Source: an uncultured Verrucomicrobiota bacterium (GTDB taxonomy: Bacteria > Verrucomicrobiota > Kiritimatiellia > CAIQIC01 > Lenti-01). From it: a stretch of DNA of 64,000 nt. The number at the start of each line of letters is the position of its first letter. Position 1 is the stretch's first letter. Location: the NCBI GenBank assembly GCA_937860055.1, contig CALMBO010000014.1:25132-89131 (forward strand). The letters run 5' to 3'. The notes under the pieces are model-generated. The model saw only the letters and a list, made by a program, of their open reading frames with translations. It did not search any database and was not told where the DNA came from. Shown here piece by piece: positions 1 through 20,313 of the stretch. The position numbers and the translations under genes are program-made.

Positions 1-1
1 G

Positions 2-3867: not shown

Positions 3868-4109
3868 ATTGTCTCTCCTCTTGATGTCGTCATTTGTGGA
3901 TCTCGCAAATTGCCCATCATGCTGTCAGCCGTAACGATCATTTGCCCCGGCTCGTTCGCCGAATCGAACATCCCTCTGAGTCGGACGCCGATGCCTTTGC
4001 GAACAGGTCGAGGGCGGTGGGCGGGAGCATGTTTCCCGAGCAAACAACTTCCAGTTGAACTCTATCAGGGATTATTCCATATTTATGCCTCCTAGATGAT
4101 TCACCGCCC

Positions 4110-4724: not shown

Positions 4725-5491
4725 ATTGTTTCCTCCTTTGTTGCGGTTGCCTGATCTGAATGCAAATGGCCGTTATCCATCCCGCCATTGTTTTGCTCCG
4801 CATCTTTTGGAGAGAGCCTGATCTGTGCGCTGGATTCTGGAGCCGTTGGGTCCGACAACAGCGCCCCCATCTCCGCCGCCATGTCCACTTGGTCGTCGCC
4901 CTCCTTGGGAAGCGTCCATGTGATTTCGAACCCACCTTCTACACCTTTGACCCGGCATGAAGCGCTGGCCGCGCAGTCCCAGTCTAGTCTAAGGATGTCA
5001 GGGTCAAATGCGATGCGCGTAGGGCTCCAGTCGCCCATGTCCACATAGAGCCCGCCCTTGCCGAGTGCTTTCTGATCGTCAGCATCGTCGTCTTGAGTCC
5101 ACGGGATGTGCCTTTTGATTACCGCACCGCTCAGCAGGTAGATCACCCAATCCAAATCGAACGGCAGAAGCCTAACCATTCCAGTGAAACCGCCACCAAG
5201 GTGGCCTCTCGCTGACCACGGAGAGAAGTCCATTCCCGCTTTTTCCTCCTCTAGGTAATCCGCAAACGATTTCAAGGTGAAATGGGCGCGAATTAGGGAT
5301 TCACTCGACTCGGGGCTATCAAACGGGGGAGCGTCCTTGTCGAGGGCCCATAGGTACACCAGATTGACCCGGTCATAGAAGGGCTGGCCATTCGCATCGA
5401 CGAGAACTTCGCAGATGTCTTGGCATTCGAATGTGGCAATTGAGTAGTTGGAGTATCTTCGTAGTATTTCCAGTGCGGTTGTTTTTTTCAT
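4721..5491 (-). CDS. hypothetical protein (256 aa, acidic)
   Basis: ORF in the same operon. No recognised domain. Confidence 0.55.
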   Translation of the reverse strand: MKKTTALEILRRYSNYSIATFECQDICEVLVDANGQPFYDRVNLVYLWALDKDAPPFDSPESSESLIRAHFTLKSFADYLEEEKAGMDFSPWSARGHLGGGFTGMVRLLPFDLDWVIYLLSGAVIKRHIPWTQDDDADDQKALGKGGLYVDMGDWSPTRIAFDPDILRLDWDCAASASCRVKGVEGGFEITWTLPKEGDDQVDMAAEMGALLSDPTAPESSAQIRLSPKDAEQNNGGMDNGHLHSDQATATKEETI

Positions 5492-5494
5492 GGA

Positions 5495-6400
5495 TTAGTT
5501 CTCCTCTTGATTAAGACCCGTCTGCGGAACCTCGACGACGCTCGGCGGTTCTCCTGGCGTCCCGACATATTGCGCCTTGACGGAATCCCATTCGCCCATA
5601 CTGCGGTCGATACAGAGCCGACATTCCATACAGCGGATAGGCTTGCATTTGCCATTTCCCAGCGCGGGGCTCCCATTCTTGTTTTGCGCTATATAGATTT
5701 TGCTCTCATATGGACATACCAGAGCGCCGCCCAACCGTTCCAGAGTGCCGTTGTGAGGCATTCGTAGATTTCTGAAGACTAGATCAACGCCAGGGGGCGG
5801 AATGTCATCGTCAGTTTCGGCGAGGTAGGTGATCAGGCCGTTGCCAATTGGATTCGGCATCCCATATTTGGCCACCATGTCGCTGTCCGTCGAAAGGTTG
5901 ACCCTGACCATATTGTGTTTCCCAGCCAATTCCTCCAAGGTGGTTCGGAACGGCTCGTTCCGCCATGCTCGGGTGTAGATGAAGTAGTTGAGATTCGTCG
6001 TATCTTCGGTCGCCGAGACGATCTCTTCCCATTTGTTTAGGTATTCGACAGAGTAGAACTCTCCTTTTTCGTGCAAGGCCACGGACACCCGTTCGTCTGG
6101 ATGGTTCTCTGTGAACTGGACAATCTCGGTTGTGATTGTCTCGATGAATTCAGGCTTCGTTGTGAGGTCGTAATTCTCAGCGTATCGCTCATGGTGGAAA
6201 AGAAACTGCCCCGTCGAGGCATAGCAATATTGGCGGCATATTATCGAAGCAAACGGACACCTGTTGTTGGGCATCCCAATCGACCATGCCAGTACATTGC
6301 ATCCCTTCTTGCTTACGGTGTTGGATAGCCAACCTCTCCTGACCGTTCTCCTGACCGCTGGGCTTTCGCCCGCCATATTATCATTCGCTTGTATCTTCAT
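5495..6400 (-). CDS. hypothetical protein with Cys-rich C-terminus (301 aa)
   Basis: First gene of the minus-strand operon. Cys clusters CPFASIICRQYCYAS and CKPIRCMECRLC suggest metal binding. No family assignment. Confidence 0.55.
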   Translation of the reverse strand: MKIQANDNMAGESPAVRRTVRRGWLSNTVSKKGCNVLAWSIGMPNNRCPFASIICRQYCYASTGQFLFHHERYAENYDLTTKPEFIETITTEIVQFTENHPDERVSVALHEKGEFYSVEYLNKWEEIVSATEDTTNLNYFIYTRAWRNEPFRTTLEELAGKHNMVRVNLSTDSDMVAKYGMPNPIGNGLITYLAETDDDIPPPGVDLVFRNLRMPHNGTLERLGGALVCPYESKIYIAQNKNGSPALGNGKCKPIRCMECRLCIDRSMGEWDSVKAQYVGTPGEPPSVVEVPQTGLNQEEN

Positions 6401-6647
6401 TCTGATTCTCCTTTTGGATTATGAGAATCTTTATACATCGAAAAATGGCCGCCCTTAAAAAATGCGTAAAATAGTTATGCGGATGCGCGGGAAACAAAGA
6501 ATTCCCATGAAAACCCCAATAATTCTGCCGATCTGCCCCCTTCAGTATTTGTGAAATATCCCCCAAGAAATATTTTCGCTGGAAGGACAGGATAAATATT
6601 TGTGAGCACGGAATAACCAGTCATCCAACAAATAGGAGGACTGGAAA
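6401..6647. promoter_or_regulatory. AT-rich divergent intergenic region between the minus-strand cargo operon and the plus-strand RHH/primase operon
   Basis: A 247-bp non-coding AT-rich stretch lies between divergent first genes. An AGGAGG Shine-Dalgarno sequence sits just before the ATG at 6648. Confidence 0.4.
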
Positions 6648-6833
6648 ATGCGTACATCAGAAAGAATGAAGGGTAAAAGACCGGTGCAGGCTGTTGTCAG
6701 CGATGAACAATATCGGCGGTTGCGGATCAGAGCGGCCATGGAATTGACCAGCATCAGCGACTTGATTCGGATTCGACTGGCGGACATCATCGACCCCGAG
6801 GCGGACTTCGCGGCCATGACGGTTCCCCGCTAG
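6648..6833 (+). CDS. ribbon-helix-helix (CopG/MetJ-like) DNA-binding protein
   Basis: 61-aa protein with the pattern KRPVQAVVSDEQYRRLRIRAAMELTSISDLIRIRL, typical of an RHH beta-strand followed by two helices. It sits directly upstream of a primase gene. Confidence 0.6.
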   Translation: MRTSERMKGKRPVQAVVSDEQYRRLRIRAAMELTSISDLIRIRLADIIDPEADFAAMTVPR

Positions 6834-6950
6834 AAATAGAAAGGCCTCCCGCGCAAGAGAGGCCTGAATAGCAGAAACCAACCGGGAAACCGCCTTCGTA
6901 TAACTATTTCATCGTCAGAACATGGTTTCCCTTCTTCCCGGGGAAACAAA

Positions 6951-8684
6951 ATGGAACAAATATCAACCGACTACTCTGCCAAACTAAACGCGGACGCAAA
7001 TATGCTGAAGGAGTTCTTCAGCATGCTCTTTGACCCCGATGAATCCGTATTGATCGTCCCGGGGCTGAATACAGAGAGATTCAAGGCTCTCTGTGCAAAT
7101 CTCGAAGGCTGGCCAAAGGAGATTGGGGGAAGGGAAACCACCTACTTCAGCAAGAAACTAGGCCGCATCCAACCTCGCCGTTATCTCAATCCATTTTCCC
7201 GTTCCCCGACCTCCGCCTCGACCCGGAACCTCGTAGCCCTCCACGAAATAAACCGGCAGGGATACGACATCTATTTCGCCATCAATCCTATGTCCTGCCG
7301 CCGCAGATGTCAGAAGACGGTCACAATGGCGAAACACGTTCTAGTTGAATCGGACACCAGCGATATCGACGCCCAACTTCGCTTTCTGAAGGAATACGAA
7401 GCCAACATCATCTCGGCCGTCCAGTCCGGTGGCAAGTCCATCCACTGCCTTGTTCGCATAGAGCCTTCACGATTGCATCCAGGGGCTGTCGGATGGAGGG
7501 AGGCCTATAGACTTCCCAAAGGCGAGACCAAGGCTCCGTGGGCCGAATACAGGCAAATTGGGGACTACTGGATTGCTGAGGCTCATAAACATGGAATGGA
7601 AATCGACACCGCGGCGGCCCATGACCACTCAAGGGTATCGAGGGTTCCGGGGTTCCTGCATGGCAAAACAGGCCGGAGGGCTGAAGTTGTCAAAATGAAC
7701 CCTATGGCCTCCTGGGACTGGAGGGGATCTGTGAAATCTTCGATGCTTGTGAGGTCGTCGATATTGTCGATATCACCGAATCAAGATGATGATGATTCAT
7801 TTTCAATATTAAATCCGAAAACCGAGTCTTTTTGTGAACTATTGGGGACTTTTGGGGACTTGAAGGAGACTAGGGAGAATAGAGACCCCGCCACGACTAA
7901 TGTTGTGCGCATAATCGGCCCGTATAGCCAGTGCCAACATCATGGAACTAGTTTTCTGGATGTATTGGACGACTTCGGGCGCCTGCGAGAGAGCGGGCTG
8001 CCCGGCCGACATACAAGGCGAAGTATGCATCGAACGCTCTTCGAGGCGGCAAGGGTCTATCGGTGGTCGATTCTTCAGATGGCCAGAGAATGGAGGCGAA
8101 TAATCAAAAGAAATCCGAAAGCAACCGTTGAGTCCGTTAAAAGCGCGGGGAGAGACATGTTGCGGGCGTGGAAAGCAACAGATGGAGTTGGGATCTACCT
8201 GCCCGATGTGACCAAATTGCCAGATCTTGACGATGCTAAGCGGGCGGTGTTGCAGACCCGGCTGGTCGGAATGGGCTGCAATGAGCCAAGGAAAGCCGCC
8301 AGAATCATCGAGCGGGTCATCCTGCCTCTTATCAAGAGCCTGCCGCGCCAATGTCGACAGGGGACTGTAGGCATCAAATCCAGAGCGCTTCGAGAGGCCG
8401 CTCATATATGGGGCCATTCGAGGGATTACAGGCACTTGTGGGAATGGATGCAGAAGGTCGGAATTGTCACCTGCATGAACAGCGATTACGTGCCGGAGAG
8501 TAGAACCCGGCAGTATGGCGTTAACATTCTTCTGGTCATATGGCTCTGCGGCTTCCGCACGGAGGAACTGGTCTGGAACACGGTAGCCAGTAACATATGG
8601 CCAGAACTTGCCCGCATGCGCGTGATCAACGATGGTGCGGTGGACTTTGGGGCTACAGAGTCTGAATTGCATTCAACCGGTTAG
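6951..8684 (+). CDS. primase-polymerase (archaeo-eukaryotic primase superfamily, RepB'-like/PrimPol-like) with C-terminal extension; no helicase motifs
   Basis: N-terminal AEP motifs are present: YDIYFAINP, the acidic motif HVLVESDTSD, and SGGKSIHCLV (sGxG.H). There is no Walker A motif anywhere in the 577 aa. Confidence 0.65.
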   Translation: MEQISTDYSAKLNADANMLKEFFSMLFDPDESVLIVPGLNTERFKALCANLEGWPKEIGGRETTYFSKKLGRIQPRRYLNPFSRSPTSASTRNLVALHEINRQGYDIYFAINPMSCRRRCQKTVTMAKHVLVESDTSDIDAQLRFLKEYEANIISAVQSGGKSIHCLVRIEPSRLHPGAVGWREAYRLPKGETKAPWAEYRQIGDYWIAEAHKHGMEIDTAAAHDHSRVSRVPGFLHGKTGRRAEVVKMNPMASWDWRGSVKSSMLVRSSILSISPNQDDDDSFSILNPKTESFCELLGTFGDLKETRENRDPATTNVVRIIGPYSQCQHHGTSFLDVLDDFGRLRESGLPGRHTRRSMHRTLFEAARVYRWSILQMAREWRRIIKRNPKATVESVKSAGRDMLRAWKATDGVGIYLPDVTKLPDLDDAKRAVLQTRLVGMGCNEPRKAARIIERVILPLIKSLPRQCRQGTVGIKSRALREAAHIWGHSRDYRHLWEWMQKVGIVTCMNSDYVPESRTRQYGVNILLVIWLCGFRTEELVWNTVASNIWPELARMRVINDGAVDFGATESELHSTG

Positions 8685-8900
8685 GGAATCGCTTGATTTT
8701 TGTCCAAGTCCGCGCGCGAGTGGCAAGTTGATTGGGCAGGTGGGGGCGTCAGGGCGGAATGGCCTGAAGAGCGCGTCATGGGGCTTCGTGAGGCTGAAGG
8801 CTGTCAGATCCTAAACGCCCAGCCTTCTCCTGGCACCGAGAAACAGAACCTTCCAGATGTCTGGAAAGTTCGCCACAATGTCGGCATATTGTGGGATTAC

Positions 8901-9950
8901 CTATTCGAACTCGATCGAGTAGACATTCCCTTGCTTGATGGTGAAGAAGCCTTCCCTGCAAGACTTATTACGGGGTTTTCCTCGTTGTGCGGAAGCGATG
9001 ACCGCAAGGTCGAATCCGGCTTGAGCCTCAGTTTTGCTCGCGAAAATGCGATACATACTAAGAAGGGCTTGTTTGTGGATTCCGAGACGTTCCGAGGCGA
9101 TGATGTCCACCAATAAGCCGTAGCCAGACCCTGGGCGGAAGGGATTCTTTGGGTGACGGAGCAGGTTAGCCACAGGAGTTCCCTTGTATGAGCTTTCGGT
9201 GGGATTGCTTTTGGCTGGGATATTCTCGGCAACCGGCTTGGCCTTCTTGGCGGGAGCCATTCTCGCAGGCTTGGCGGGCGGGACCTTTTCCAAGTATTCC
9301 TGCACTGACGCTTTTATAGCGAACGATGCATTTGGATCAAAGATATCCCATCCGCATGCCGGAGGATGTCCATGTTTCTTCCAGTATTCCATGACGGAAA
9401 TCGGAATTTCGGTGGCAAGTCGATAATAGACATCCTTGCCGATGGCCATTTTCTCGACCACCGACCGCCAATTGTTGTCGGGATGCAAGGGGTTGGCCAC
9501 CACGCCAAAGGCCAGATAGAACATTGTAACATCTATTGTGCCGTTGGCACCCATAAGTGTCAGTTTATCAGATGTAAGATGACCATTATTAAGCAGTTCC
9601 CAAGTTCTGGCCGCCTCGGAATTTGGATGATCTAGGAAAGGGTTATTGGTGGCGAGGGGATGCGTTCCAGACTGTTTGGCTTTCACCGGAACTCTGGCTT
9701 TTTGTTTGTGCATATGTACAATCTCGAATGCACTCAATCCAATGTCAATCCTGAACGGAGCCCGCCTGTGATTTCTAAAACAAAACCTTCCCGTCATGAT
9801 TTGATGATAAGGGTGTATGCTGACATTCTTCGGGGCATCCACTATCGCCATGAGTTCGCCAGAAGGGATCCCGTCGTTAGAAATAAATGCGAGGGCATCA
9901 TTGACGCTCTGGGTTCTAATCATGAGTCCTTCTCGGCATTCGAGGCCCAA
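8901..9950 (-). CDS. hypothetical protein (up to 349 aa; true start may be an internal Met near 9797-9851)
   Basis: Long ORF with a Lys/Pro-rich central linker (KAKPV..PAKS). It overlaps plus-strand ORFs at both ends, so the strand assignment is uncertain. Confidence 0.4.
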   Translation of the reverse strand: MGLECREGLMIRTQSVNDALAFISNDGIPSGELMAIVDAPKNVSIHPYHQIMTGRFCFRNHRRAPFRIDIGLSAFEIVHMHKQKARVPVKAKQSGTHPLATNNPFLDHPNSEAARTWELLNNGHLTSDKLTLMGANGTIDVTMFYLAFGVVANPLHPDNNWRSVVEKMAIGKDVYYRLATEIPISVMEYWKKHGHPPACGWDIFDPNASFAIKASVQEYLEKVPPAKPARMAPAKKAKPVAENIPAKSNPTESSYKGTPVANLLRHPKNPFRPGSGYGLLVDIIASERLGIHKQALLSMYRIFASKTEAQAGFDLAVIASAQRGKPRNKSCREGFFTIKQGNVYSIEFE

Positions 9951-10670
9951 GACGGAAGCCTGTTGGTAGATATTCTGGCCAAGGCCTATCGAAAGGCCAA
10001 GAAGAATACGGACGGATCAAATATCCAAAAAGATCTCTCCGCATTTTTTATATCCTATGGAATATTGCCCATTGCACCATTGGGAAGGCCATTCTTAGGC
10101 GAGAACATTAGATTGAATCGGAAAACTGGAATACCGAGTCATAATTATGGAGAAAGCGACCATATTTGGCTGAAAATAGTTTGGAACAAGCTGTTGGCAT
10201 TTGAGATATTTGCTATGGCGGAATTCTCATTGCCTCATCCGATAATGATGCCGGTCCTGCCGCTATCATTGCCAACGACTAAAACAGGCAATAATGATCT
10301 TCGAGAGAATGTCGAGGTAACGCCAACCTCATTGCCTGTGTACATCAACATCCTACAGTCTCCCGAGGTGTTGGCGAACTACATTACTGCTTTTGCGGAG
10401 CAAGGAAGAGAGTCTCGCCTTTTGCAAATGCCAAAACAAGAGTCGGACTATAGAAGCGTTAAGACCGACGAGAGCAAATACGAGCGGTATCTTGATGCCC
10501 TTGATCTGGATTTGAAGTGCCAAGAAGGAGTACCATACGGCGATAAGTATGAATATTTTCAACGATACAACGACTTCCATAATCCAACTGGCGACGCCAT
10601 CATCACGTTTTACAAGGATTCAAGAAGATGTGCCCGGTTGTACCGTGATAAATACCGGCTAATTGTCTGA
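9660..10670 (+). CDS. hypothetical protein (up to 336 aa; alternative start at 9804)
   Basis: Long ORF co-directional with the plus-strand operon. It overlaps the 5' end of the minus-strand ORF at 8901-9950. No recognised domain. Confidence 0.35.
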   Translation: MRSRLFGFHRNSGFLFVHMYNLECTQSNVNPERSPPVISKTKPSRHDLMIRVYADILRGIHYRHEFARRDPVVRNKCEGIIDALGSNHESFSAFEAQDGSLLVDILAKAYRKAKKNTDGSNIQKDLSAFFISYGILPIAPLGRPFLGENIRLNRKTGIPSHNYGESDHIWLKIVWNKLLAFEIFAMAEFSLPHPIMMPVLPLSLPTTKTGNNDLRENVEVTPTSLPVYINILQSPEVLANYITAFAEQGRESRLLQMPKQESDYRSVKTDESKYERYLDALDLDLKCQEGVPYGDKYEYFQRYNDFHNPTGDAIITFYKDSRRCARLYRDKYRLIV

Positions 10671-10827
10671 TCGCCCGCATTTACTCCTGACTCTTTAAGT
10701 TTCCTGTTTCTCGCCTTGATTGTCCTCTCAGGGTGAAGCCAGACGTGTGCCCAATCTCCCCCTAGTGCCGGTCGCTTATGTAATATAGAGACATTAAATT
10801 AGCCACAGTTAACTAAAGGACTGTGGC

Positions 10828-11613
10828 ATGAAAAAGACATCCAAGACGGCGCCGGCAAAAATGGCCGGCAAGACATCTGAGCCCACCGGGCAGACGGCGA
10901 CCACGAAGCGCGCCCGCCAAGTAAAACCTTCTGGATGTCTGGAAGGTTCAGCCTCAAGCGGTCTGCCGAAGAAGAATGCCGACGACATCATCGCCATGCA
11001 TGGCGAAGAGGCCTACAAGTACTACTTCGACAGCGAGGACGGGAAGTATTCTATCGGAGCGGAAGCTGGCGGGGCTACAAAAGAATTGCGGGGGACCGAC
11101 GCGCGCGTACCCAATGAACTCTATGTCTGTCGGGCTCTCTCCCAGTACCTCCAGAAGAAAGGGATAAGGGATGTCTCGTCCTCGACGATCTATGACTGGA
11201 TGCGTTCCGATGAAACCCGCAAGGCGCTTGGCGGTAAAGGCAAGGCTCCCAAAATCTCTATCAGCTTCTATGTAGCCGTCAGCCGGGATGACATCCCAAT
11301 TGAGAAGCGGCGGGAACATCTCGAATATGCGATTAAACATTCACTGACAGTCGGGGGGCTCAAGGATCGTATCTTTGGGAGAGAGGGGGTAAGTGGGATC
11401 GGCGATGGCGATGCTGCAGGCGAGGGGGCCATATCGGACATCGCAACAGCCGAGCGGATTATCAGCGAATCCCGGTCGTTATTGTTGGGCCATTATGAAG
11501 AGTTTCGCTCAATCGATCCCGCGCAGAACAGTAGTTCCATCGCTCTGCTGGAAAACCTAGCAATCTATATCTGGCAACTGCGGGACGATATTGCCAACGG
11601 CGGACCTAAGTAG
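10828..11613 (+). CDS. hypothetical protein (261 aa)
   Basis: ORF preceded by an inverted repeat that embeds the RBS. No recognised domain. Confidence 0.55.
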   Translation: MKKTSKTAPAKMAGKTSEPTGQTATTKRARQVKPSGCLEGSASSGLPKKNADDIIAMHGEEAYKYYFDSEDGKYSIGAEAGGATKELRGTDARVPNELYVCRALSQYLQKKGIRDVSSSTIYDWMRSDETRKALGGKGKAPKISISFYVAVSRDDIPIEKRREHLEYAIKHSLTVGGLKDRIFGREGVSGIGDGDAAGEGAISDIATAERIISESRSLLLGHYEEFRSIDPAQNSSSIALLENLAIYIWQLRDDIANGGPK

Positions 11614-11624
11614 GGGGATGACGA

Positions 11625-12797
11625 ATGAAATCGCTGAAACACATTCCCGATGTATCGACGAAGAACATGGGCAACAAGGATAAGACCGGCGTCCAAGCCG
11701 ACGGCACCAAGAAATCTCTGCTGAAGGCCATTTCTGAAGCCATCGGCGATTGTCCCGAAGGAGTTATCGACCTGACCGCCGGGAGTCTTGCGGTATCCCT
11801 GCATCTGAATTCCATTTGCGGGAAGCGGGTAATCGCCAACGATTGTCGTAAGGCGTCATATTACACGGGGCTGGCCTTTTTCAACAGCGATGGGGTGGTT
11901 ATCGGGGCCAAAGATATCGAACTGCTCCAACATGGTGGTCTTGTCGCCGGTCCCGTAGTCAAACTGCTCGAGTCAGTCTTGGGCAAAAATAACGCAACGC
12001 AATTTGACCGGATCATCCGCAACCTGGGTTGTCTTGCCGGTGCCGGTGCCGAACAGAAGCGTATCATTGCGATAGCCGGCATCCTCCAGGCTATCTCCGG
12101 AGCCCTCAACGTCTACCATCTTCGGGGGGCCAACAGGGACTGCGGTGCCGCCGGGAACGAACATCTCAGGGATGCCGATCTTATCTCCGAATGGCGGGAA
12201 TGGGTCCTTGTCAAGCATCCGGAGATCGCCAAGGGGATTACCCTCGGTTGCGAAATCTACAACGAAGACGCCGTCTCGCTTATGCAGGATAAGAAGCCTT
12301 CAGCATCCTGCCTATATTTAGATCTTCCATACGGAATAGGAAATTATATTGCCGACCTTAAGGTCTTCGAGGACATCTGCAATCTTTGCGAGGGGAAACG
12401 GCCAGGCGACCCGGTATTCGGGCGCCCCGCTCAACCTAAACATCGGTTCGACAACCGCATCGACTACATTGGCAACCTGACGAAGCTGCTTCTGGGGTCC
12501 GACCATATCCCGCGCTGGGTGATTTCCATTAATACAAGTTCGCCCGTTAAGCCCGAAGAGATTGTCAGGATTGTCCGGTCTTTTGGCAGGAAATGCGAAA
12601 TCCGGCGTTACAAGGTCTCCCTGGCAACCAACCGCAAGAGGGCAACTCCCCTCGAAAATTATGAATGCTTGATCATATGTACGCCAGACGCCGAGCTTGA
12701 AAAACAAATTTCAGGCATTCGCAGTCGTTTCGAATCAATGGCCAGTTCCCGCCGTCTATTGTCTCCGAGTACGGGGAACAAACAGGAGCGCAAATGA
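11625..12797 (+). CDS. N6-adenine DNA methyltransferase, Dam-like (alpha-class) candidate
   Basis: An N-terminal AdoMet-binding-like block (VIDLTAGSLAVSLHLN) resembles Dam FxGxG. A downstream DPPY-type motif reads CLYLDLPYGIG. The motif order (FxGxG then DPPY) fits the D12/Dam class. Confidence 0.55.
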   Translation: MKSLKHIPDVSTKNMGNKDKTGVQADGTKKSLLKAISEAIGDCPEGVIDLTAGSLAVSLHLNSICGKRVIANDCRKASYYTGLAFFNSDGVVIGAKDIELLQHGGLVAGPVVKLLESVLGKNNATQFDRIIRNLGCLAGAGAEQKRIIAIAGILQAISGALNVYHLRGANRDCGAAGNEHLRDADLISEWREWVLVKHPEIAKGITLGCEIYNEDAVSLMQDKKPSASCLYLDLPYGIGNYIADLKVFEDICNLCEGKRPGDPVFGRPAQPKHRFDNRIDYIGNLTKLLLGSDHIPRWVISINTSSPVKPEEIVRIVRSFGRKCEIRRYKVSLATNRKRATPLENYECLIICTPDAELEKQISGIRSRFESMASSRRLLSPSTGNKQERK

Positions 12798-12906
12798 AAG
12801 GGTCGGGTCTGACAATCGATTTTCGCTTTGGCGAGTGTCCAAGAGCGATGGAAAGAAGAAACGCCCAATAGGGCATAGGCCGAATAACCAGAAGGACGAG
12901 GAAGAA

Positions 12907-13218
12907 ATGAAAAAGATACAAGACGGGCTCAAGTACGACACCGAAACGGCGACCCTTGTCGCAGAAGACTGCAACGGGCACGACCGTAGCAATTACAACT
13001 ACTGGACAGAGCAACTCTACCGCACACAGAACGGTCGGTGGTTCGTGTACAAGGCTGGCGGGGCCAACACCCAGTATATGGTCAAACTCTGCGATGGGCG
13101 AGGCTTCGGAGAGTCCATTGAAATCCTCGACGATGAGGCAGTCAAGGAGTGGCTCGAAGAGCACAACAAGGGCGAAGCATACGAGAAGTACTTCGGCAAC
13201 GAAATCAAGAATGCATAA
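12907..13218 (+). CDS. small hypothetical protein (103 aa)
   Basis: A good Shine-Dalgarno sequence (AGGACGAGGAAG) precedes the ATG at 12907. The longer 12697 start lacks an RBS. No motif. Confidence 0.4.
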   Translation: MKKIQDGLKYDTETATLVAEDCNGHDRSNYNYWTEQLYRTQNGRWFVYKAGGANTQYMVKLCDGRGFGESIEILDDEAVKEWLEEHNKGEAYEKYFGNEIKNA

Positions 13219-13281
13219 AGCAATAGGGGATACCTGCAGACAAGACTCCGCAGGGGTCTCCACTAAAACAAAGGCAATGAG

Positions 13282-14109
13282 ATGAAATCACATAATCAGA
13301 TCAAAGAATCGAAAGTACACCCCCGTCCCGCCAGCGGAACTGGCGAATGGGCAGAGGAAAACATCAACATTCAGACCGGCTGCAACCGGGACTGCAAATA
13401 TTGCTATGCCAAATGCATGGCGGTTCGGTTCCGCCGCGCGACACCAGAATCGTGGCCCGACCAGGTTGTTGATGAGGCCAAGGTAAAAAAGCATTACGGT
13501 AAGTCGAAAGGCCGGGTTATGTTTCCCTCGACCCACGACATCAGCCCCGAAAACATCCAAGACTGTCTGCAGGTCATGGATTGTTTGCTGAAGGCCGGTA
13601 ACGACATCCTCGTTGTCAGCAAGCCCGAACTAGCCTGCATCAAGAGCATCTGCGCCAGATTCATAAACAATAAGCGACAGATACTCTTCAGGTTCACCAT
13701 CGGTTCAGCGGACGATGCAATTCTCACAAAATGGGAGCCGAACGCATCCTCATTCGGCGAGAGGCTAAAATGTCTCAAGCACGCTTACGCATTAGGCTAC
13801 GGTACTTCAGTCTCCTGCGAACCGATGCTGGATGCCCAGGTTGGCAAAGTCATCAAAGCCGTATCGCCATTCGTCACCGACTCGATCTGGTTGGGTCGGA
13901 TCAATCGGCTCCGCCAGACAATCGCGATCAATTGTCCTGGCGACGAAAGCATCAAAGCGCTGGCGAACCAATTACTGGCAGAGCAGACCGACGACTGGAT
14001 TCTGGCTCTGTATAATAACTTCAAGAACAACCCAATTATTCGATTCAAGGACTCCATCAAGAAAGTGGTGGGTCTTATAAGGCCGACAATAAAAGGGTTG
14101 GACATATGA
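13282..14109 (+). CDS. radical SAM protein, SplB/COG1533-like (DNA repair photolyase-type)
   Basis: CxxxCxxC motif embedded as GCNRDCKYCYAKC, matching the GC...C.YCYA pattern of COG1533. Size is about 275 aa. Stop overlaps the next start. Confidence 0.6.
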   Translation: MKSHNQIKESKVHPRPASGTGEWAEENINIQTGCNRDCKYCYAKCMAVRFRRATPESWPDQVVDEAKVKKHYGKSKGRVMFPSTHDISPENIQDCLQVMDCLLKAGNDILVVSKPELACIKSICARFINNKRQILFRFTIGSADDAILTKWEPNASSFGERLKCLKHAYALGYGTSVSCEPMLDAQVGKVIKAVSPFVTDSIWLGRINRLRQTIAINCPGDESIKALANQLLAEQTDDWILALYNNFKNNPIIRFKDSIKKVVGLIRPTIKGLDI

Positions 14110-14957
14110 ATACTATGGACGGGAGAGATTCCCGGCAGGAGACAAGAAGCAAAACCTCTGACAACTCAGGGGATGACCAAAAGACAGAAAGAGAAGCCAT
14201 GAAAAAGAAAAATGCGAAAAAGATGAATAACTCAATGAACATCAAGAAACAGGAGGATGGTATGGGCAAGCAAGATGCGAATGGTGAACGCTTGGGTGAT
14301 TGGTTGAAGCGGGAAGAAGAATGTAAGCAGGCGTGGTATGCATTCATTGCAACCCACGAAATACCCGATGAAATTCCGACAAGACCAGACATGGTTTACG
14401 CCAACGAAGGATGGAAAGGCTGGCAAGATTGGCTGGTGTCGCCTGATTCGAAAGGAAATATGGCCAGAACGGTCAAGGAACCTAATCTGCCAACTCCCGA
14501 CGAGTGCTTCATCTCCGTAGTATTCGACGAATGGCTGAAGGACAGCCATTGCCTGGACTCCATGGAGGTGTGGGATGCCGACCCGAAAAGGCCGTTCCGT
14601 TTCAATGCAATCATAGAATTCACCACCCATCAGGGGCTTTCAAATGGCAGTGACCTTGGCTTTCTGATGGTTCAAGAGGCAATGAGTCGCATTATGGAAA
14701 TTGGCCATTCTGCCGGACTCTGTACCTGCTGCGTGGTTCAAGCGGTCGGACAGGTCAGTCTGAAGAAAAGCGACGGGAATGCCTTTGCGAAGGAACGCCT
14801 GGTTGACAACGGGATGGACGAGAAAGATGCCGAGGTGTTTCTCCGCAGCGTCTCGTTGTATCTCAATGTCATTAGCGACGAATGGCCGTTTAAGTATGTC
14901 GGCCCGAGCGAGACATCTGATGACAAGGCAATGGATTCTGATGGAGGCCATCCATGA
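14106..14957 (+). CDS. hypothetical protein, paralogue A of an unrecognised family (basic disordered N-terminus)
   Basis: Shares the blocks EWLKDSHCLD..WDADPKRPF.FN and EWPF.YVGPS..DD.A with the ORF at 15417-16127. Confidence 0.6.
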   Translation: MNTMDGRDSRQETRSKTSDNSGDDQKTEREAMKKKNAKKMNNSMNIKKQEDGMGKQDANGERLGDWLKREEECKQAWYAFIATHEIPDEIPTRPDMVYANEGWKGWQDWLVSPDSKGNMARTVKEPNLPTPDECFISVVFDEWLKDSHCLDSMEVWDADPKRPFRFNAIIEFTTHQGLSNGSDLGFLMVQEAMSRIMEIGHSAGLCTCCVVQAVGQVSLKKSDGNAFAKERLVDNGMDEKDAEVFLRSVSLYLNVISDEWPFKYVGPSETSDDKAMDSDGGHP

Positions 14958-15175
14958 GCGATAAGAAACTGATCTACAGGGCAACAAAGGCTTACTACCA
15001 GCATTGCCTCCGCAATGGACAAATATTCAGCCAGCCCGACAAGGGGCTCTCGGAGGTGGATGGCGACTATGTTGTTCTTCGCAACTGCGATGGAGTGCTG
15101 GCGTTGTATTGGATTACGGACAATGGACTTCATTTTGTCGAACACTCGGATTCGGAGGCTAAGGAATATGTTTGA
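14954..15175 (+). CDS. small hypothetical protein (73 aa)
   Basis: ATGA start/stop overlap with the upstream gene. Confidence 0.4.
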   Translation: MSDKKLIYRATKAYYQHCLRNGQIFSQPDKGLSEVDGDYVVLRNCDGVLALYWITDNGLHFVEHSDSEAKEYV

Positions 15176-15416
15176 GAAGGCAAGCAAGGTCTCCGAGGCC
15201 TTAAGCACCTCCAGCTCCCCATTGGGTCGTTGGCTCTGCAAAGATCTCGACTCAATGGGACCCCTAGGCCAACTGGCCTCTCCGCTGTTCAAGGCCGGCG
15301 CCTCTTCGCTGCCTATGCAAAGGACTTAGAAATCTATTAAGGCAGGAAAGCCAGCGAAAAGCCCAACAGCTCGCCCTCGGCACTCTGCATCGGTCTGCCA
15401 ATAGGTCAGAAAGAAA

Positions 15417-16127
15417 ATGAGGAGAAAAATGAAAAACAAAAAGAGCGCCAACATGGACTCGGGTGCAAAGACCGACATCAAAGCGATAAGAAAACCTAAA
15501 GACATTCATGCTGGAGTAGGAGAACTGGAAGAAAGACTTGAGCGTCTTCTTGGCTTGTTCCGGAATGTTCCAACGACATCTATTGGTTGCGGCGAAGAAA
15601 GCGCATTTCAAGCCGTCCAGAATGTGATTGATAGTCTAAAATATGCGCTTTCAACCTGTGAGGTTGTTGCAAATCAATGCTTCGTATCTGAGTTAATCAA
15701 CGAATGGCTGAAGGATAGCCATTGCCTCGATAACCAGGATGCGTGGGACGCTGATCCGAAAAGACCATTCCCATTCAATGAGGTTATGGCCTTCATTGAC
15801 AAACATGGGCCATTCGATAGCAAGGATCTCAGAACCTGGATGACCGGAGTGGCGCTCAGGCGCATGGTCGTCATTGGGCGCTCGGTGGATATCAGTAGAG
15901 CCCTTGGGCTGATTCGGGTGGTCGGACAAGTTAGTCATGGGAAAAGCCGGGAGATCTCCAAGGCGATGGATTATCTTGGCGAAGCTGGACTATGTGCCAG
16001 TGAGGCAGATGAGTACCTGCGTTGCGTTTCATTGTACCTCAAAGTCTGCCGTGGCGAGTGGCCGTTTGACTATGTCGGCCCGAGCCAGTCGGCAGACGAC
16101 GAGGCCAACTCAAGGTCTTCCCCATGA
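15417..16127 (+). CDS. hypothetical protein, paralogue B of the same unrecognised family
   Basis: Carries the same conserved blocks as 14106-14957 (EWLKDSHCLDNQDAWDADPKRPFPFN ... EWPFDYVGPSQSADDEA). It has a basic N-terminus. Confidence 0.6.
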   Translation: MRRKMKNKKSANMDSGAKTDIKAIRKPKDIHAGVGELEERLERLLGLFRNVPTTSIGCGEESAFQAVQNVIDSLKYALSTCEVVANQCFVSELINEWLKDSHCLDNQDAWDADPKRPFPFNEVMAFIDKHGPFDSKDLRTWMTGVALRRMVVIGRSVDISRALGLIRVVGQVSHGKSREISKAMDYLGEAGLCASEADEYLRCVSLYLKVCRGEWPFDYVGPSQSADDEANSRSSP

Positions 16128-16223
16128 ACCAACCCCTCCAGCCCAGCATTTCCCAGGCCATGTGCCGAGATATACAAAAATCTGTCGCTGTATAATGAGT
16201 CATCATCAAAAGGAGTAATTAAT

Positions 16224-16757
16224 ATGTCGAATGTATGTAGAAATCAAATACTAGTCGTAGGTCCTACCCCGGGCCTCGCCCGGTTCAAGCGGGAAGCCTG
16301 TAACTTCAAGTCCTACGACGATCCGCACGTCGATCTGCGCATGGACAAACTTATTCCACTGTCAGTCCTCTCAGCCAGAGAGCGCGAATGTTTTGGTTGC
16401 TACGGAGATGTCGGTGGTACCCGACTCAGGTTTAGAGATTCAAAGTCCGGCTTTGGCTGTCTGGACTTTAAATTCGACTCTTCGGATTGGGCACCAATTG
16501 AGTTCCTACAGAAGACATCTGAACTTTATCCAGATCTGGAATTTCATCTCATTCATACTGTAGGAGATTCTTGCCGTGCAGGAAAAGTCACATATTTGGC
16601 CGGGAAGCCAATAAATGAAGTCCGGGTGGCGTACATCGATCCCGATGACTGTCTCGATGAATACCTAGATCGACCCGGCCTGGTCCCATGGATGGAAGGC
16701 CTGTTCAAAAATCCAGATTCTCCTATGCCGAATCACAATGAGGGCGACCCTGAATGA
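16224..16757 (+). CDS. hypothetical protein, member 1 of a second paralogue pair
   Basis: Strong RBS (AAAGGAG). An upstream TGTATAAT extended -10 lies at 16189-16196. The N-terminal N.C.N.L.V.G block and the C-terminal YP.L.F.LI...G block are shared with 16920-17441. Confidence 0.55.
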   Translation: MSNVCRNQILVVGPTPGLARFKREACNFKSYDDPHVDLRMDKLIPLSVLSARERECFGCYGDVGGTRLRFRDSKSGFGCLDFKFDSSDWAPIEFLQKTSELYPDLEFHLIHTVGDSCRAGKVTYLAGKPINEVRVAYIDPDDCLDEYLDRPGLVPWMEGLFKNPDSPMPNHNEGDPE

Positions 16758-16816
16758 CCGTCCGCCTCCAGCATGATATGGCCATTGGGTTCGCCACCAG
16801 AAAGGCGTCCGCCTCG

Positions 16817-16850
16817 CGGCCACCTGACCCATACCCCCGCACCCTCCAGC
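16817..16850. repeat. about 33-bp intergenic motif GGCCACCTGACCCAT..CCGCACCCTCCAGCC (copy 1)
   Basis: Near-identical copy at 17448-17480. A shorter CCCCTCCAGCCC version occurs at about 16134-16145. Each copy lies just 3' of a cargo gene. Confidence 0.6.
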
Positions 16851-16919
16851 CAATCGGCCTCCAGAAGGCCCGAACCTATACGCGGTATAATCGAATAAGA
16901 AAACAAAAGGAGAAATATT

Positions 16920-17441
16920 ATGCCTAACTACTGCGAAAACCACTTAACCATCACAGGCCTTCGCAAGGACCTTGAAGTCTTTCGCGACAGCGCTGCTTTA
17001 CTAGAAGCGTCTTCCGAGGGTGATGAGGCTTCCCCCTTTTGCTTCAGCAAACTAGTGCCGGTCCCGGAACCCCTATTCGATATCAAGGATTATGAATACG
17101 ATTGGAAGGAGGAGCATTGGGGATGCCATCGGTCTGCAGAAGACGTCGATTGTTTCCTGTTCTGCGACGAAAATGGAAGAGGGCAGCTTGTCTATGAGTT
17201 CCTTACTCCCCGGTCGTGTCCTGTTAAGTTCATCGAGGGGATTTCGGCTAGATATCCGAACCTGACATTCTCCTTGATTGCCTTTATAGGGGAAGTCCAG
17301 TCTGCCGCGCTATATATCGCCCGTCGCGGCATCATATTTACCGAAATTGTGGGACATTACGAAGCGTCTCTGATGGATGATGCCTTTCAGGAAGGGCCGT
17401 ACACCTCATGGCGATTTATTCCGCCCCAGGAAGGCATCTAG
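16920..17441 (+). CDS. hypothetical protein, member 2 of the second paralogue pair
   Basis: RBS AAAGGAGAAA. An upstream GGTATAAT -10 lies at 16884-16891. Sequence blocks are shared with 16224-16757. Confidence 0.55.
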   Translation: MPNYCENHLTITGLRKDLEVFRDSAALLEASSEGDEASPFCFSKLVPVPEPLFDIKDYEYDWKEEHWGCHRSAEDVDCFLFCDENGRGQLVYEFLTPRSCPVKFIEGISARYPNLTFSLIAFIGEVQSAALYIARRGIIFTEIVGHYEASLMDDAFQEGPYTSWRFIPPQEGI

Positions 17442-17447
17442 CTGAAG

Positions 17448-17480
17448 GCCACCTGACCCATGCTCCGCACCCTCCAGCCC
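17448..17480. repeat. about 33-bp intergenic motif (copy 2)
   Basis: Matches 16817-16850 with a few mismatches and one indel. It starts 7 nt after the stop of the upstream gene. Confidence 0.6.
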
Positions 17481-17551
17481 CAAGCCCCCAGACGGACCTT
17501 TTCGAAAATCCACAACAGCGTTTAGGTGGTTCCGGAGGCTGAAAAAGGCCG

Positions 17552-19225
17552 TTGGCGACGGCTGCAGAAATGGACATGAAGAAAGGCAAAAAGAAGCGAG
17601 GCATTTGGCAGGACTTCCGCCCCTGTGACCCTGAGGGGAAGGCGTCGGCCGTCTACATTCGCATCTCCCGCGACGACGCCGGGGCGAAGAATCCCAAGGA
17701 GGCCAAGGAGTCCGCCCGGGTCCAGCAGTCGAAGTGCGAGGCCTACGCCAAGGAAAGGGGCTGGGCCGTCCGGCTCTATCAGGACATCAACCTTTCGGGC
17801 TTCGACGACGAGGGGCGTCCCGATTTCCAGCGGTTGCTTGCCGACATAAACGCAGGCCTCATCCACTCGGTCATCGTACTTGAGCCCAAGCGTCTAGCCC
17901 GCGACAACTCGATCATGGACGCGGTCGTCAAGGAATACCTCTATCCGAACGGGATCAAGCTCCATGGAGTAATGAGCCCGATCGACATCACGAACGATGA
18001 CGGGCTCTTCATGCTCGGCATCGAAATGGCCTTTTCCCGTAAGGCGATTTCGGAGCAGCGCAAGAAGTCCATGGCCTCCATCGACAGCCAACTGAAAGAA
18101 CACACCTTCATCCCCAGGCCATGCTACGGCTACCGGCGAGACGAGAAGGGGCGGATCCATGTGGTGGAGTCCGAAAAAGCGGTGATCCTGGAGATGTACC
18201 GGATGTGTCTCAAGGGCGACTCGATGAACGAGATCAGCGAATATTTCAACCGAGCCGGCGTCCCGGGCAAGCGGGGGGCTAGGTGGTGGACCCACCGGCA
18301 GATCAAGATCGTCCTGACCAACCCGGCCTACGTGGGCAAGATCCGCTACCGGGGCGTGCATGAGACCCGGTTGATCCCCAAGATGGTGACCAAGGAGACG
18401 CAGGACTCGGCGGCGGAGATGCTGGCCATCAGGTCCCACAAGCGGGCGCCATCCAAGCGGCACCTCTTGAGCGGGCTGGTGACCTGTTCATATTGCGCTG
18501 AAAAGGCGAGCAGGGGCGAACGGGCCTATCCGGCGATGGTCCTGAACATCCAGACGCAGGGCCCCAAGGGAGAGAAGAAGAAGTACGCCTATTTTTTCTG
18601 CCAGTCCCAGAACCGGGGTGTGTTCCATTGCGAGTCGCCCAGGGTTCCGGAAGCCGCCTTGGACGCCATTGTCGAAGGCACCATCGTCCCTTATGTCCTG
18701 GACAGGTATTCGAGGCAGATCGGCGCCGACTCGCACCAGGAGACCCTCAAGAGGCTGGAGGCGGCGAGGGGGCGGGTCCGTCTCGTCGAGTCACGCAACA
18801 AGGAGATCGAGGATTCGTTCGCCTCCGGGGAGATGGGGAAACTGGAATACCTTCGTCTGAGGGACAAGAACCAGGCGAAGTCGTCGGTTGCGAGAGAGGA
18901 GATATCCGTTTTGCTCCAGATGGCCGAGTCGGAAGACCCGAACAAGGTTCAAGAGGTCGTGGATGTCTTGCAAAGATGGCAGGAGATGCCCATGGAGAAA
19001 CGGCGGGACGCCATCCGCACCTTCATCGAGTCAATCGAGGTTTCCGCCGAGTGGGTGACCTTCCATATCAGGCCCGTCGGGGGCGACAAGTGGTCGTTCA
19101 ATGTCCGACTGGAAACCGTGCGGAGATACCAGGAGAAGCCCATAGGGGATCTGAAGAATCATATGGAATGGACGCTGGGGCAGGCGGGGTATGCTAACCA
19201 GGAACCTTGTCCCAATGTCGGTTGA
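17552..19225 (+). CDS. large serine recombinase (integrase)
   Basis: N-terminal resolvase-type catalytic region with the serine motif AVYIRISRDD, followed by a long recombinase domain and a C-terminal Cys-rich zinc ribbon (CSYCAEK...FFCQSQNRGVFHCESP). Length is 557 aa. It lies at the junction with host DNA. Alternative start at 17573. Confidence 0.85.
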   Translation: MATAAEMDMKKGKKKRGIWQDFRPCDPEGKASAVYIRISRDDAGAKNPKEAKESARVQQSKCEAYAKERGWAVRLYQDINLSGFDDEGRPDFQRLLADINAGLIHSVIVLEPKRLARDNSIMDAVVKEYLYPNGIKLHGVMSPIDITNDDGLFMLGIEMAFSRKAISEQRKKSMASIDSQLKEHTFIPRPCYGYRRDEKGRIHVVESEKAVILEMYRMCLKGDSMNEISEYFNRAGVPGKRGARWWTHRQIKIVLTNPAYVGKIRYRGVHETRLIPKMVTKETQDSAAEMLAIRSHKRAPSKRHLLSGLVTCSYCAEKASRGERAYPAMVLNIQTQGPKGEKKKYAYFFCQSQNRGVFHCESPRVPEAALDAIVEGTIVPYVLDRYSRQIGADSHQETLKRLEAARGRVRLVESRNKEIEDSFASGEMGKLEYLRLRDKNQAKSSVAREEISVLLQMAESEDPNKVQEVVDVLQRWQEMPMEKRRDAIRTFIESIEVSAEWVTFHIRPVGGDKWSFNVRLETVRRYQEKPIGDLKNHMEWTLGQAGYANQEPCPNVG

Positions 19226-19317: not shown

Positions 19318-20313
19318 ATGGGTTACAGTTTACACCACAGGGGATATTATTCCGACGTGAAGGGGCAGGAGTTCGCGCGTCGCGCGATCGAAGTGGCGGT
19401 GGCCGGTGGCCACAATATCCTCCTGGTGGGGCCGCCGGGCACGGGGAAATCCATGCTGGCCAAGCGGGTGCCGACGATCCTGCCGCCGCTGGGGCTGGAA
19501 GAGGCGCTGGAGACGACGAAGATCCACAGCATCGCGGGGGTGCTGCCGGCGCACCAGGCGGTGGTGGGGGGTCGGCCGTTCCGGTCGCCGCACCACACGA
19601 TTTCCGATGCGGGGCTGCTGGGCGGCGGCACGCATCCGCTGCCCGGCGAAGTCAGCCTGGCGCACAACGGGGTGCTGTTCCTTGACGAGCTGCCGGAGTT
19701 CCACCGCAACGTGCTGGAGGTGATGCGCCAGCCGCTGGAGGATGGCGTGGTGTCCATTGCGCGCGCGGCGGCTTCGGTGACGTTTCCGTGCCGGTTCATG
19801 CTGGTGGCGGCGATGAATCCGTGTCCGTGCGGGCATTTCGGGGATGCGAAGCGGGAATGCCGGTGCACGCCGGTCCAGATGCAGCGCTACCGAAACCGGA
19901 TTTCGGGGCCGCTGCTGGACCGCATCGACATCCACGTCGAGGTGCCGGCGATGGAATACCAGCAGCTGGCGTCGCTGGAGAAGGGGGAGTCCTCTTCGCA
20001 GATCCGGGAGCGGGTGGTGGCGTCGCGGGCGGTTCAGCGGGAGCGGTTCGCCAAGGGCCGGGGGGCGCATGCGATCCACTGCAACGCGGGGATGCGGGCC
20101 AAGGACGTGCACAAGCACTGCATGCTGGACGATGCGGCGCAAAGCCTGCTCAAGGCCGCGATGGCCGACCTGCACCTGAGCGCCCGCGCCTATGACCGGA
20201 TTTTGAAGGTAGCCCGGACGATCGCGGACCTGGCGGGGGAGGGCGACATTGCCGCCGACCATGTCGCCGAGGCCATCCAGTACCGCTCCCTGGACCGGCA
20301 ATACTGGACCTGA
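19318..20313 (+). pseudogene. comM: comM (Mg-chelatase-like AAA+ competence ATPase), 3' fragment; 5' part displaced by element insertion
   Basis: The 331-aa ORF aligns to the ComM/YifB C-terminal two-thirds only, beginning at [29 protein letters not shown] (Walker A). The N-terminal domain of about 170-190 aa is absent. The first codons are AT-rich junction DNA, and the GC switch occurs at about 19350. Confidence 0.75.

Follow-up and report, generated by a model that had tools for sequence, protein, structure and literature searches.

Why does an integrative element of an uncultured bacterium carry a gene for a Dam-like methyltransferase close to one for a radical S-adenosylmethionine (SAM) enzyme, and do the two proteins act together? 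The question arises from a 64,000-nucleotide (nt) stretch of contig CALMBO010000014.1 (positions 25,132 to 89,131; uncultured Verrucomicrobiota bacterium, Kiritimatiellia), which we refer to as the window. As listed among its open reading frames (ORFs), three lie on the + strand at 11625-12797, 12907-13218, and 13282-14109. The original prediction, made from the sequence alone, described them as genes for a Dam-like methyltransferase, a small protein, and an SplB-type radical SAM protein and read the group as an anti-restriction or DNA repair cassette or, together with a downstream paralogue pair, as a DNA modification pathway. In our analysis, the methylase and the radical SAM enzyme probably alter DNA chemically, allowing the element to escape host restriction. 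The reading that we favor, tentatively and with some reserve, is that each belongs to a module of its own, that both modules are DNA directed and separable, and that they serve restriction evasion from the accessory region of a serine recombinase element inserted in yifB/comM.

In this reading, the region would be part of the accessory (establishment), mosaic segment of the element. Module 1 would comprise a conserved 261-amino-acid (aa) ORF and the orphan D12-class methyltransferase, which would methylate adenine at N6, with SAM as the donor, within a sequence motif of the element's DNA and so shield the element against host restriction; for a mobile element, carrying an orphan adenine methylase is the classic way to evade restriction. 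Module 2 would comprise the 103-aa protein and the radical SAM enzyme, a relative of spore photoproduct lyase (SPL) and of Gp37/Gp68 proteins. Its predicted [4Fe-4S] cluster, held by C34, C38, and C41, would cleave SAM to give a 5'-deoxyadenosyl radical for hydrogen abstraction chemistry on a DNA base, and we rank installation or remodeling of a base modification as likelier than repair of ultraviolet (UV) lesions. Both modules would most likely serve the survival of incoming element DNA, working side by side, and a two-step pathway would not be required.

The element and its two enzymes

The two genes lie inside an integrative element inserted in the yifB/comM gene of a Kiritimatiellia bacterium, as indicated by a step in G+C content, a serine recombinase gene, and a split yifB gene. 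The G+C content is ~52% from base 1 to base ~19,225 and ~66% in the remainder of the window, and the step falls just past a gene (17552-19225, +) for a 557-aa large serine recombinase with NCBIfam XisF/CcrB-type matches, with which the low-GC element ends on the right. The 3' part of the host gene that the element splits follows at 19318-20313 (+) and encodes 331 aa of a Mg-chelatase-like protein with Mg_chelatase domains; full-length proteins in the same 90% cluster are 514 aa long and carry the name YifB family, Kiritimatiellia bacterium. The left end of the element lies outside the window, past whose left edge the element extends. Several metagenome contigs (L001 to L004; related loci are denoted here by L numbers) carry the same element, and Resolvase, Recombinase, and Zn_ribbon_recom domains were found on their recombinase gene, which is identical to that of the window.

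The composition of the element suggests restriction site avoidance. Within positions 1-19225, ACGT occurs 11 times against 31.5 expected (ratio, 0.35) and AGCT 20 times against 44.1 expected (ratio, 0.45); the host flank (19300-64000) has no such depletion (ratios of 1.05 for ACGT and 1.39 for AGCT), and GATC is not depleted in the element (ratio, 0.82). The original prediction had seen no recognizable cognate endonuclease nearby, and none emerged when the ORFs of the element, including those flanking the methylase gene, were scanned against Pfam, NCBIfam, PHROGs, and PADLOC (below, the four collections); several of these ORFs, flanking ones among them, have no match at all and might include a nuclease of unrecognized type. 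The earlier idea of an anti-restriction cassette is plausible on this evidence, since it fits a mobile element that has no recognized cognate nuclease and in which ACGT and AGCT are avoided.

By profiles and motifs, the 390-aa protein encoded at 11625-12797 (+) is predicted to be a divergent D12-class (Dam-type) SAM-dependent amino-methyltransferase, apparently an orphan. Both the FxGxG-like block and the later LDLPY on which the Dam-like assignment had been based are present in it, as VIDLTAGSLAVSLHLN and YLDLPYG. The protein matched PF02086 at 23.5 bits (cutoff, 22) over residues 27-79 only, phrog_27806 ("DNA methyltransferase") over residues 27-359 (E = 3.5e-12), and PADLOC type II methyltransferase (MTase) models (E = 4e-7). 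Its close family is small (12 clusters); an exhaustive search with the methylase profile yielded 1,191 relatives with E values up to 1e-3, of which 47 reached 1e-30 or better. A third homologue search, with a widened methylase alignment, had added only two proteins. Homologues in L023 and L029, 26 to 27% identical to the window methylase, matched most of the PF02086 profile (81 and 55 bits), and PADLOC type II MTase models matched the lineage with E values down to 1e-31. We aligned 10 sequences, namely, the window protein, seven close relatives, and the L023 and L029 homologues (identity down to 25%). G16-x-K18 (motif X), G53 (motif I loop, DLTAGS), N72-D73 (motif II), and D233, P235, and Y236 (motif IV) are invariant, and position 234 varies among L, P, M, A, and S. 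The alignment to D12 enzymes thus places the catalytic DxPY motif in Dam-type order, with DLPY as a tolerated variant of DPPY, and upholds the assignment to the D12 class. In the window protein VISINTSS follows motif IV, and residues 95-203, between motifs II and IV, form a helical region in an AlphaFold2 model. T4 Dam aligned to the protein locally, at motifs I and IV (E = 0.4). With its SAM-binding and D-x-P-Y motifs kept down to 25% identity, the methylase looks active.

The 275-aa protein encoded at 13282-14109 (+) contains the predicted CxxxCxxC, within GCNRDCKYCYAKC, and matched the radical SAM profile PF04055 at 36.6 bits (cutoff, 29.5); this match, like those of the methylase, is better than expected by chance. 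The three-Cys cluster held on closer alignment: C34, C38, and C41 are invariant in 201 of 201 relatives, in which C124, C119, and C179 are conserved at 97%, 90%, and 80%, respectively, and G19, E22, W23, H85, D86, K114, R137, W151, E152, E180, D184, and K256 at or near 100%. Judged by these invariant cluster cysteines and near-invariant residues, the enzyme looks active. An AlphaFold2 model (pLDDT, 89.5) had as its top Foldseek matches SPL, SuiB, viperin, and LipA, all of them radical SAM enzymes, and the best solved match was SPL (Foldseek E = 5.5e-5, TM-score of 0.5, ~15% identity; hmmsearch E = 1.5e-5). The matches to viperin cover the Cys motif only. Membership in SPL itself was rejected: PF20903 scored 17.8 against a cutoff of 27 and TIGR04070 scored 16.6 against 400, and Cys140, the hydrogen donor of the Geobacillus enzyme, is missing. 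That residue aligns to Ser83, at a position that is Ser or Thr across the sequences aligned and where confidence in the alignment is moderate. The COG1533 families PA0069 and Rv2578c gave weak matches (E = 2e-5; 23.6 bits against a cutoff of 360), DUF5131 (PF07505) scored 20.7 bits, below its cutoff of 28.9, and radical SAM mobile pair protein B (TIGR04470) scored 33.5 bits, far below the equivalog cutoff of 410. PDC-M41B and PDC-M30B matched residues 21-82 only (E = 3e-6 and 1e-5, respectively), and the N-terminal ~70 residues (20-88) are homologous to those Gp37/Gp68 proteins that partner TcmP (HHalign probability, 91%). Of the predicted SplB type, then, the three-Cys enzyme and SPL as nearest solved relative held up, and the thresholds of the SPL and COG1533 families were missed. 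By these profile and fold comparisons, the enzyme is a member of an unnamed family between COG1533/SPL and Gp37/Gp68 (DUF5131).

This family is large, with more than 3,200 clusters and members in at least 297 species genomes, and it has no specific curated model. A genome scan with the single window protein as the query found nothing; the family profile worked, and the 297 species genome matches fell in Verrucomicrobiota, Bacteroidota, Desulfobacterota, Planctomycetota, Ignavibacteriota, Lentisphaerota, and other lineages. Searches by tblastn gave five weak matches in 50,697 phage records, none of them M6, and none in PLSDB plasmids. Among IMG/VR viral contigs (L120 to L174), a separate radical SAM family is common whose members share ~25 to 30% identity with the window protein across residues 16-217.

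What would such an enzyme act on? Most carriers are gut and sediment anaerobes, in which UV photoproducts are rare. Two kinds of radical SAM enzymes only, SPL and gp53 of Pseudomonas phage M6, have been reported to act on DNA (PMC8989533). DNA is the most likely substrate of the window enzyme as well, given that its nearest solved relative is SPL, that DNA methylases and TcmP recur as its partners, and that M6 gp53 sets a precedent. The enzyme might instead be a lyase, SPL-like or SOS-regulated and COG1533-like, that reverses a base lesion in element DNA, with the methylase an unrelated orphan anti-restriction enzyme. SPL as the best solved match and the weak PA0069 and Rv2578c matches are in keeping with such a lyase, as are the many family members that stand alone and the genes for single-stranded DNA-binding protein (SSB) and UvrB/UvrD-type proteins among family neighbors; COG1533 genes, moreover, are LexA regulated in several phyla (PMC4951493, PMC8565304). 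Yet the scores fall far under the SPL and COG1533 cutoffs, Ser83 stands in place of Cys140, and family members linked to TcmP sit among type I restriction-modification (R-M), TIR, GmrSD, and AAA_21 genes, not repair genes. We consider this lyase explanation decidedly unlikely and UV repair in particular unlikely, since Cys140 is missing and the carriers are mostly anaerobes with few UV photoproducts. DNA repair is on the same grounds (missed SPL thresholds, Cys140 replaced by Ser83, UV lesions rare for most carriers) the weaker, if still plausible, half of the earlier functional reading. The chance that the methylase and the radical SAM enzyme modify tRNA, rRNA, the nucleotide pool, or protein seems slim: profiles put the methylase lineage in the D12 DNA family (81 bits for L023; PADLOC type II MTase E = 1e-31), the radical SAM enzyme has a DNA enzyme as its closest relative of solved structure, and both genes lie among replication and recombination genes of a mobile element.

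Linkage of the two genes in close relatives and across the family

In the window, the methylase and radical SAM genes are 484 nt apart with the 103-aa gene between them, and neither gene keeps this pairing in its closest relatives. The L005 locus encodes a methylase of 81% identity and no radical SAM enzyme of the window family; in L006 to L010, a methylase of 74 to 75% identity is followed by a C5 methylase, a 156- to 163-aa ORF, and a radical SAM enzyme of the DUF5131 type (CRFSCSYC). Conversely, no methylase family match was found among the neighbors tested of the closest radical SAM relatives in L179 (74% identity) and L181 (81% identity), and in L180 (69% identity) the D12 methylase is a different one, encoded on the other strand at a distance of 1.8 kb. 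The comparison of radical SAM neighborhoods that had been proposed earlier therefore gave a divided answer: MTase-fold partners recur across the family, and the methylase and radical SAM genes have been inherited apart in their closest relatives. The two genes are, on this synteny, separable, and the tie between them is not obligatory at the level of the element.

Two other pairs are steadier, that of the 261-aa ORF with the methylase and that of the 103-aa ORF with the radical SAM enzyme. Homologues of the 261-aa ORF (10828-11613, +), which by synteny is a possible regulator or partner of the methylase directly downstream, lie immediately 5' of the methylase gene in L005 and L006 (61 to 82% identity), and a 266-aa ORF holds this place in L007 to L010; throughout L005 to L010, the upstream ORF overlaps the methylase start by 4 nt. 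The pair is kept in every relative of the element. The 261-aa ORF had no match in the four collections. In L023 and L029, the ORFs overlapping the start of the methylase resemble it marginally (HHalign probability, 55%; E = 1e-4). The 103-aa protein (12907-13218, +) is the ATG-initiated part of a longer TTG ORF; a Shine-Dalgarno-like site, GAGGAAG, precedes it, and metagenome gene callers give the same length. Homologues directly 5' of a radical SAM gene were found in L179 (68% identity) and in L011 and L012 (38%; E = 1.6e-15), with weak similarity in L180, making this protein the most consistent neighbor of the radical SAM gene among its nearer relatives. It is absent from L181, from the 80 genome loci described below, and from the viral loci, and the notion of a universal radical SAM partner was dropped because the genome and viral loci have no homologue. 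No family match to it was found in the four collections. One of the loci with a homologue, L011 (1-8804), is an integrase-bearing element in which genes for a helicase and for C5 (two), D12, and Eco57I-like methylases come before the gene for the 104-aa homologue and, after it, that for the radical SAM enzyme; this gene run is a methylase-rich "establishment" array.

ORFs were called and clustered in 80 genome loci of the radical SAM family. In 23 of these, a gene for TcmP lies within two genes of the radical SAM gene; 23 of the 24 TcmP genes in the set are that close, and 18 copies share the strand of the radical SAM gene and immediately precede it, separated from it by -83 to +79 nt. TcmP, the "three-Cys-motif partner protein," is an MTase-fold protein of ~270 to 390 aa in these loci (TIGR04474, 84 to 159 bits; cutoff, 53) and matched PADLOC models PDC-M41A and PDC-M30A (E = 1e-100 and 1e-105, respectively); one copy had a subthreshold winged helix-turn-helix match (17.4 bits; cutoff, 27). 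TcmP loci are set in defense islands with type I R-M, AAA_21/AAA_15, TIR, GmrSD, and Schlafen-type genes. At the other 57 loci, which have no TcmP within two genes, the neighbors are mobile element-like (integrases, resolvases, SSB, and primases), and UvrB/UvrD-type genes are also found there. D12 methylases recur as well. A homologous methylase flanks the radical SAM gene in L023 in the same gene order as in the window, and L029 (3217-5094; identical to L175), from a metagenome-assembled genome of Lentisphaerae, encodes a 625-aa in-frame fusion with PF02086 at residues 16-259, PF04055 at residues 378-526, a Pro-rich PEPEPPTVPTK linker, and no stop codon at the junction. Among viral contigs, L110 has a D12 methylase gene upstream of the radical SAM gene, L114 has one downstream of it across a gap of 3 nt, and L159 has an N6_N4 methylase gene ahead of that for a distant radical SAM relative. 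In a neighbor-joining tree, one large clade is TcmP linked, and the clade of the window enzyme mixes TcmP-linked, D12-linked, and unpartnered members; each type of partner, TcmP or D12, was found with each type of enzyme, Gp37/Gp68 or window family, to give four combinations. TcmP and D12 profiles had no meaningful similarity (HHalign probability, 10%). Plasmids of Hymenobacter and Leptospira biflexa (L177, 3974-5870; L178, 3845-5919) carry tcmP followed by a gene annotated "phage Gp37/Gp68 family protein," in Leptospira directly behind a type ISP restriction/modification enzyme.

These family-level data favor some functional tie of the radical SAM enzyme to MTase-fold partners. The tie might be a single pathway, in which the D12 enzyme would make N6-methyladenine in DNA and the radical SAM enzyme would elaborate the methyl group or the flipped base into a bulky hypermodified base that blocks many restriction enzymes. 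Such sequential logic resembles that of Trm5 and then TYW1 in wybutosine synthesis. It is also like that of M6 gp53, which acts on already modified thymidine (PMC8989533), and the in-frame fusion of L029, the shared gene order and homologous methylase of L023, the D12 methylases adjoining viral radical SAM genes in L110 and L114, the tight TcmP pairs, the occurrence of all four combinations, and the intermixing of partner types in the clade of the window enzyme all argue for it. The closest relatives of each gene, however, lack the other. The fusion was observed in a single organism, and a metagenome scan gave just a sequence 100% identical to it over 625 residues; of the 150 best methylase subfamily representatives (from 1,191 relatives), 148 were new matches, none of which has a radical SAM domain, and fusions are therefore rare. 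A close relative of the window D12 methylase adjoins the radical SAM gene at only 2 of the 80 loci from genomes, L023 and L029, a frequency that, by a rough estimate, may not exceed the background of methylase-rich mobile DNA. Backbone genes of the window element also occur in both loci, whose gene order may therefore be inherited and not independently selected. A sequential pathway is in our view somewhat unlikely for the window. The corresponding part of the original prediction, one DNA modification pathway, stays plausible at the level of the family (TcmP pairing, D12 adjacency, and one fusion) and is weakened by the separate inheritance of the two genes in the closest relatives.

The company of TcmP in defense islands invites another explanation, namely, defense or addiction, in which an MTase-fold protein would mark self DNA and the radical SAM enzyme would damage unmarked DNA or, in a variant, make an antiviral nucleotide, as viperins do. 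The strong PDC-M41A and PDC-M30A matches of TcmP neighbors in loci among known defense genes accord with this, as do the resemblance of the L029 fusion to fused R-M enzymes and the lack of a classical nuclease beside the window methylase. The PDC systems, however, are unvalidated "guilt-by-embedding" candidates (PMC10855318), and the window protein matches their "B" models weakly (E = 3e-6, residues 21-82) and viperin in the Cys motif only. A toxic effector without its protector would be unexpected, yet 57 of 80 loci have no TcmP within two genes. We regard defense or addiction as very unlikely for this locus.

Several observations weigh against the two parallel modules that we favor. The case for a DNA substrate rests on neighbors and on distant homology, with SPL at a TM-score of 0.5 and 15% identity; the D12 match of the methylase in Pfam is marginal, and structure searches place this protein only among generic class I amino-methyltransferases, tRNA enzymes included. 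The L029 fusion and the tight TcmP pairs point to coupling rather than to parallel action. In the searchable literature, TcmP, Gp37/Gp68 (DUF5131), PDC-M30/M41, and the window radical SAM family appear in annotation mentions only, with no functional study. Finally, every gene from ~9,660 up to the recombinase gene is on the + strand, and a scan found no convincing + strand terminator within 10828-14957 and thus none between the methylase and radical SAM genes. With the right arm one codirectional array without a terminator, the adjacency of these genes inside the window is weak evidence when taken alone. Promoter and terminator scans of the region returned site numbers no higher than those in shuffled sequence.

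A broader proposal, unlikely as it stands but worth stating, is that a TcmP or D12 MTase-fold protein and an SPL/Gp37-type radical SAM enzyme together form a widespread combinatorial DNA modification system whose product would be a novel hypermodified base such as a radical-elaborated N6-methyladenine; its use would be restriction evasion on mobile elements and the marking of self DNA in defense islands, and the window would hold its D12 plus SPL-like variant. The radical SAM family links SPL to the equally uncharacterized Gp37/Gp68 and recurs beside methylase-fold partners on mobile DNA and in defense islands. If the family does modify DNA, it would represent new base chemistry in the arms race among phages, plasmids, and hosts, and the function of PDC-M30, PDC-M41, and TcmP would be explained. 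The window offers a compact, expressible gene set.

Neighboring ORFs and other genes of the element

A 283-aa ORF (14106-14957, +) overlaps the stop of the radical SAM gene by 4 nt, and its C-terminal ~150-aa domain is paralogous to the product of 15417-16127 (45% identity over 145 aa). The suggestion that this downstream paralogue pair is tied to the enzymes was not borne out, except that a 162-aa homologue (63% identity) overlaps the stop of another radical SAM-type gene, that of the DUF5131 type in L006. A copy 96% identical to 14106-14957 lies behind the radical SAM gene in L180. No family match was found in the four collections, and a tie between 14106-14957 and the enzymes is uncertain. 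Together with 16224-16757 and 16920-17441, which are 23% identical over 147 aa, the downstream ORFs form two paralogue pairs without family matches; ORF 16920-17441 has a weak DUF1281_C match (E = 0.07).

Elsewhere in the element, 6951-8684 (+) encodes a 577-aa protein whose residues 107-172 match the phage DNA primase profile phrog_2597 and which has distant homologues in L023, and 2380-2919 (-) has an identical gene in L002 that is annotated RNase H; by these matches, the two genes are likely to be the replication module of the element. ORFs 8901-9950 (-) and 9660-10670 (+), both long, overlap by ~290 nt across the two strands, and both have homologues in L005, L006, and L029, which makes the predicted gene boundaries here provisional. 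A GP88 protein (PF17338, 81.7 bits) encoded at 5495-6400 (-) carries CPFASIICRQYCYA, a C-x6-C-x3-C motif with a CYA end like those of the radical SAM and Gp37 motifs. HHalign profile comparison of two GP88 sequences with the radical SAM family gave no meaningful similarity. In the related element L005 (2587-4871), the GP88 gene and a gene for a C5 DNA methylase have 4 nt in common, which may be a further pairing of a methylase with a Cys motif protein.

Comparison with known systems

Apart from its conserved 261-aa upstream partner, its helical region between motifs II and IV, its DLPY motif, and its great divergence, the window methylase resembles T4 Dam-like orphan D12 methylases, with which it shares the order of GxK, an FxGxG-like loop, ND, a D-P-P-Y-like motif, and IS-N and the lack of a recognized nuclease. 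Its neighbor, the radical SAM enzyme, shares with SPL (PDB 4fhc and 4fhd) the partial-barrel radical SAM fold and a cluster motif near the N terminus of the core; it differs in being ~70 residues shorter, in having Ser/Thr for Cys140, and in being borne on a mobile element, and its carriers are not known to form spores. The COG1533 "SplB" proteins (PA0069 and Rv2578c) are distant homologues and likewise uncharacterized radical SAM proteins linked to DNA transactions. Their chromosomal genes are LexA regulated in Verrucomicrobia, Bacteroidetes, and other phyla (PMC4951493, PMC8565304), whereas members of the window family are shorter, occur in mobile elements and defense islands, and are not known to be LexA regulated. 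The best precedent for the proposed chemistry is M6 gp53, an SPL-like radical SAM isomerase of thymidine hypermodification that remodels a base modification on DNA (PMC8989533): it, too, is SPL-like and encoded on a mobile genome, and it acts after another enzyme's base modification. Unlike the M6 system, the window has no genes of a 5-hydroxymethyldeoxyuridine pathway, and the partner is a methylase.

The closest parallel in organization is the pair of TcmP (TIGR04474) with Gp37/Gp68 (PDC-M30 and PDC-M41). Both can be read as two-gene units of an MTase-fold gene and a three-Cys radical SAM-type gene on mobile DNA and in defense islands, and the N terminus of the window enzyme, GEWAxxNxNxQxGCxxxCxYCYA, is homologous to the IEWTxxTWNPxxGCxKxSxGCxxCYA of Gp37/Gp68. 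They differ in the Cys spacing (C-x3-C-x2-C in the window enzyme and C-x6-C-x2-C in Gp37/Gp68), in the 103-aa gene that lies between the two genes in the window, and in the partner, which in the window is a D12 methylase without detectable TcmP similarity (no NCBIfam match for 11625-12797 or 10828-11613). From these comparisons, the window locus seems best described as a variant of an uncharacterized theme, MTase fold plus three-Cys radical SAM, in which a D12 methylase replaces TcmP and an SPL-like enzyme replaces Gp37/Gp68.

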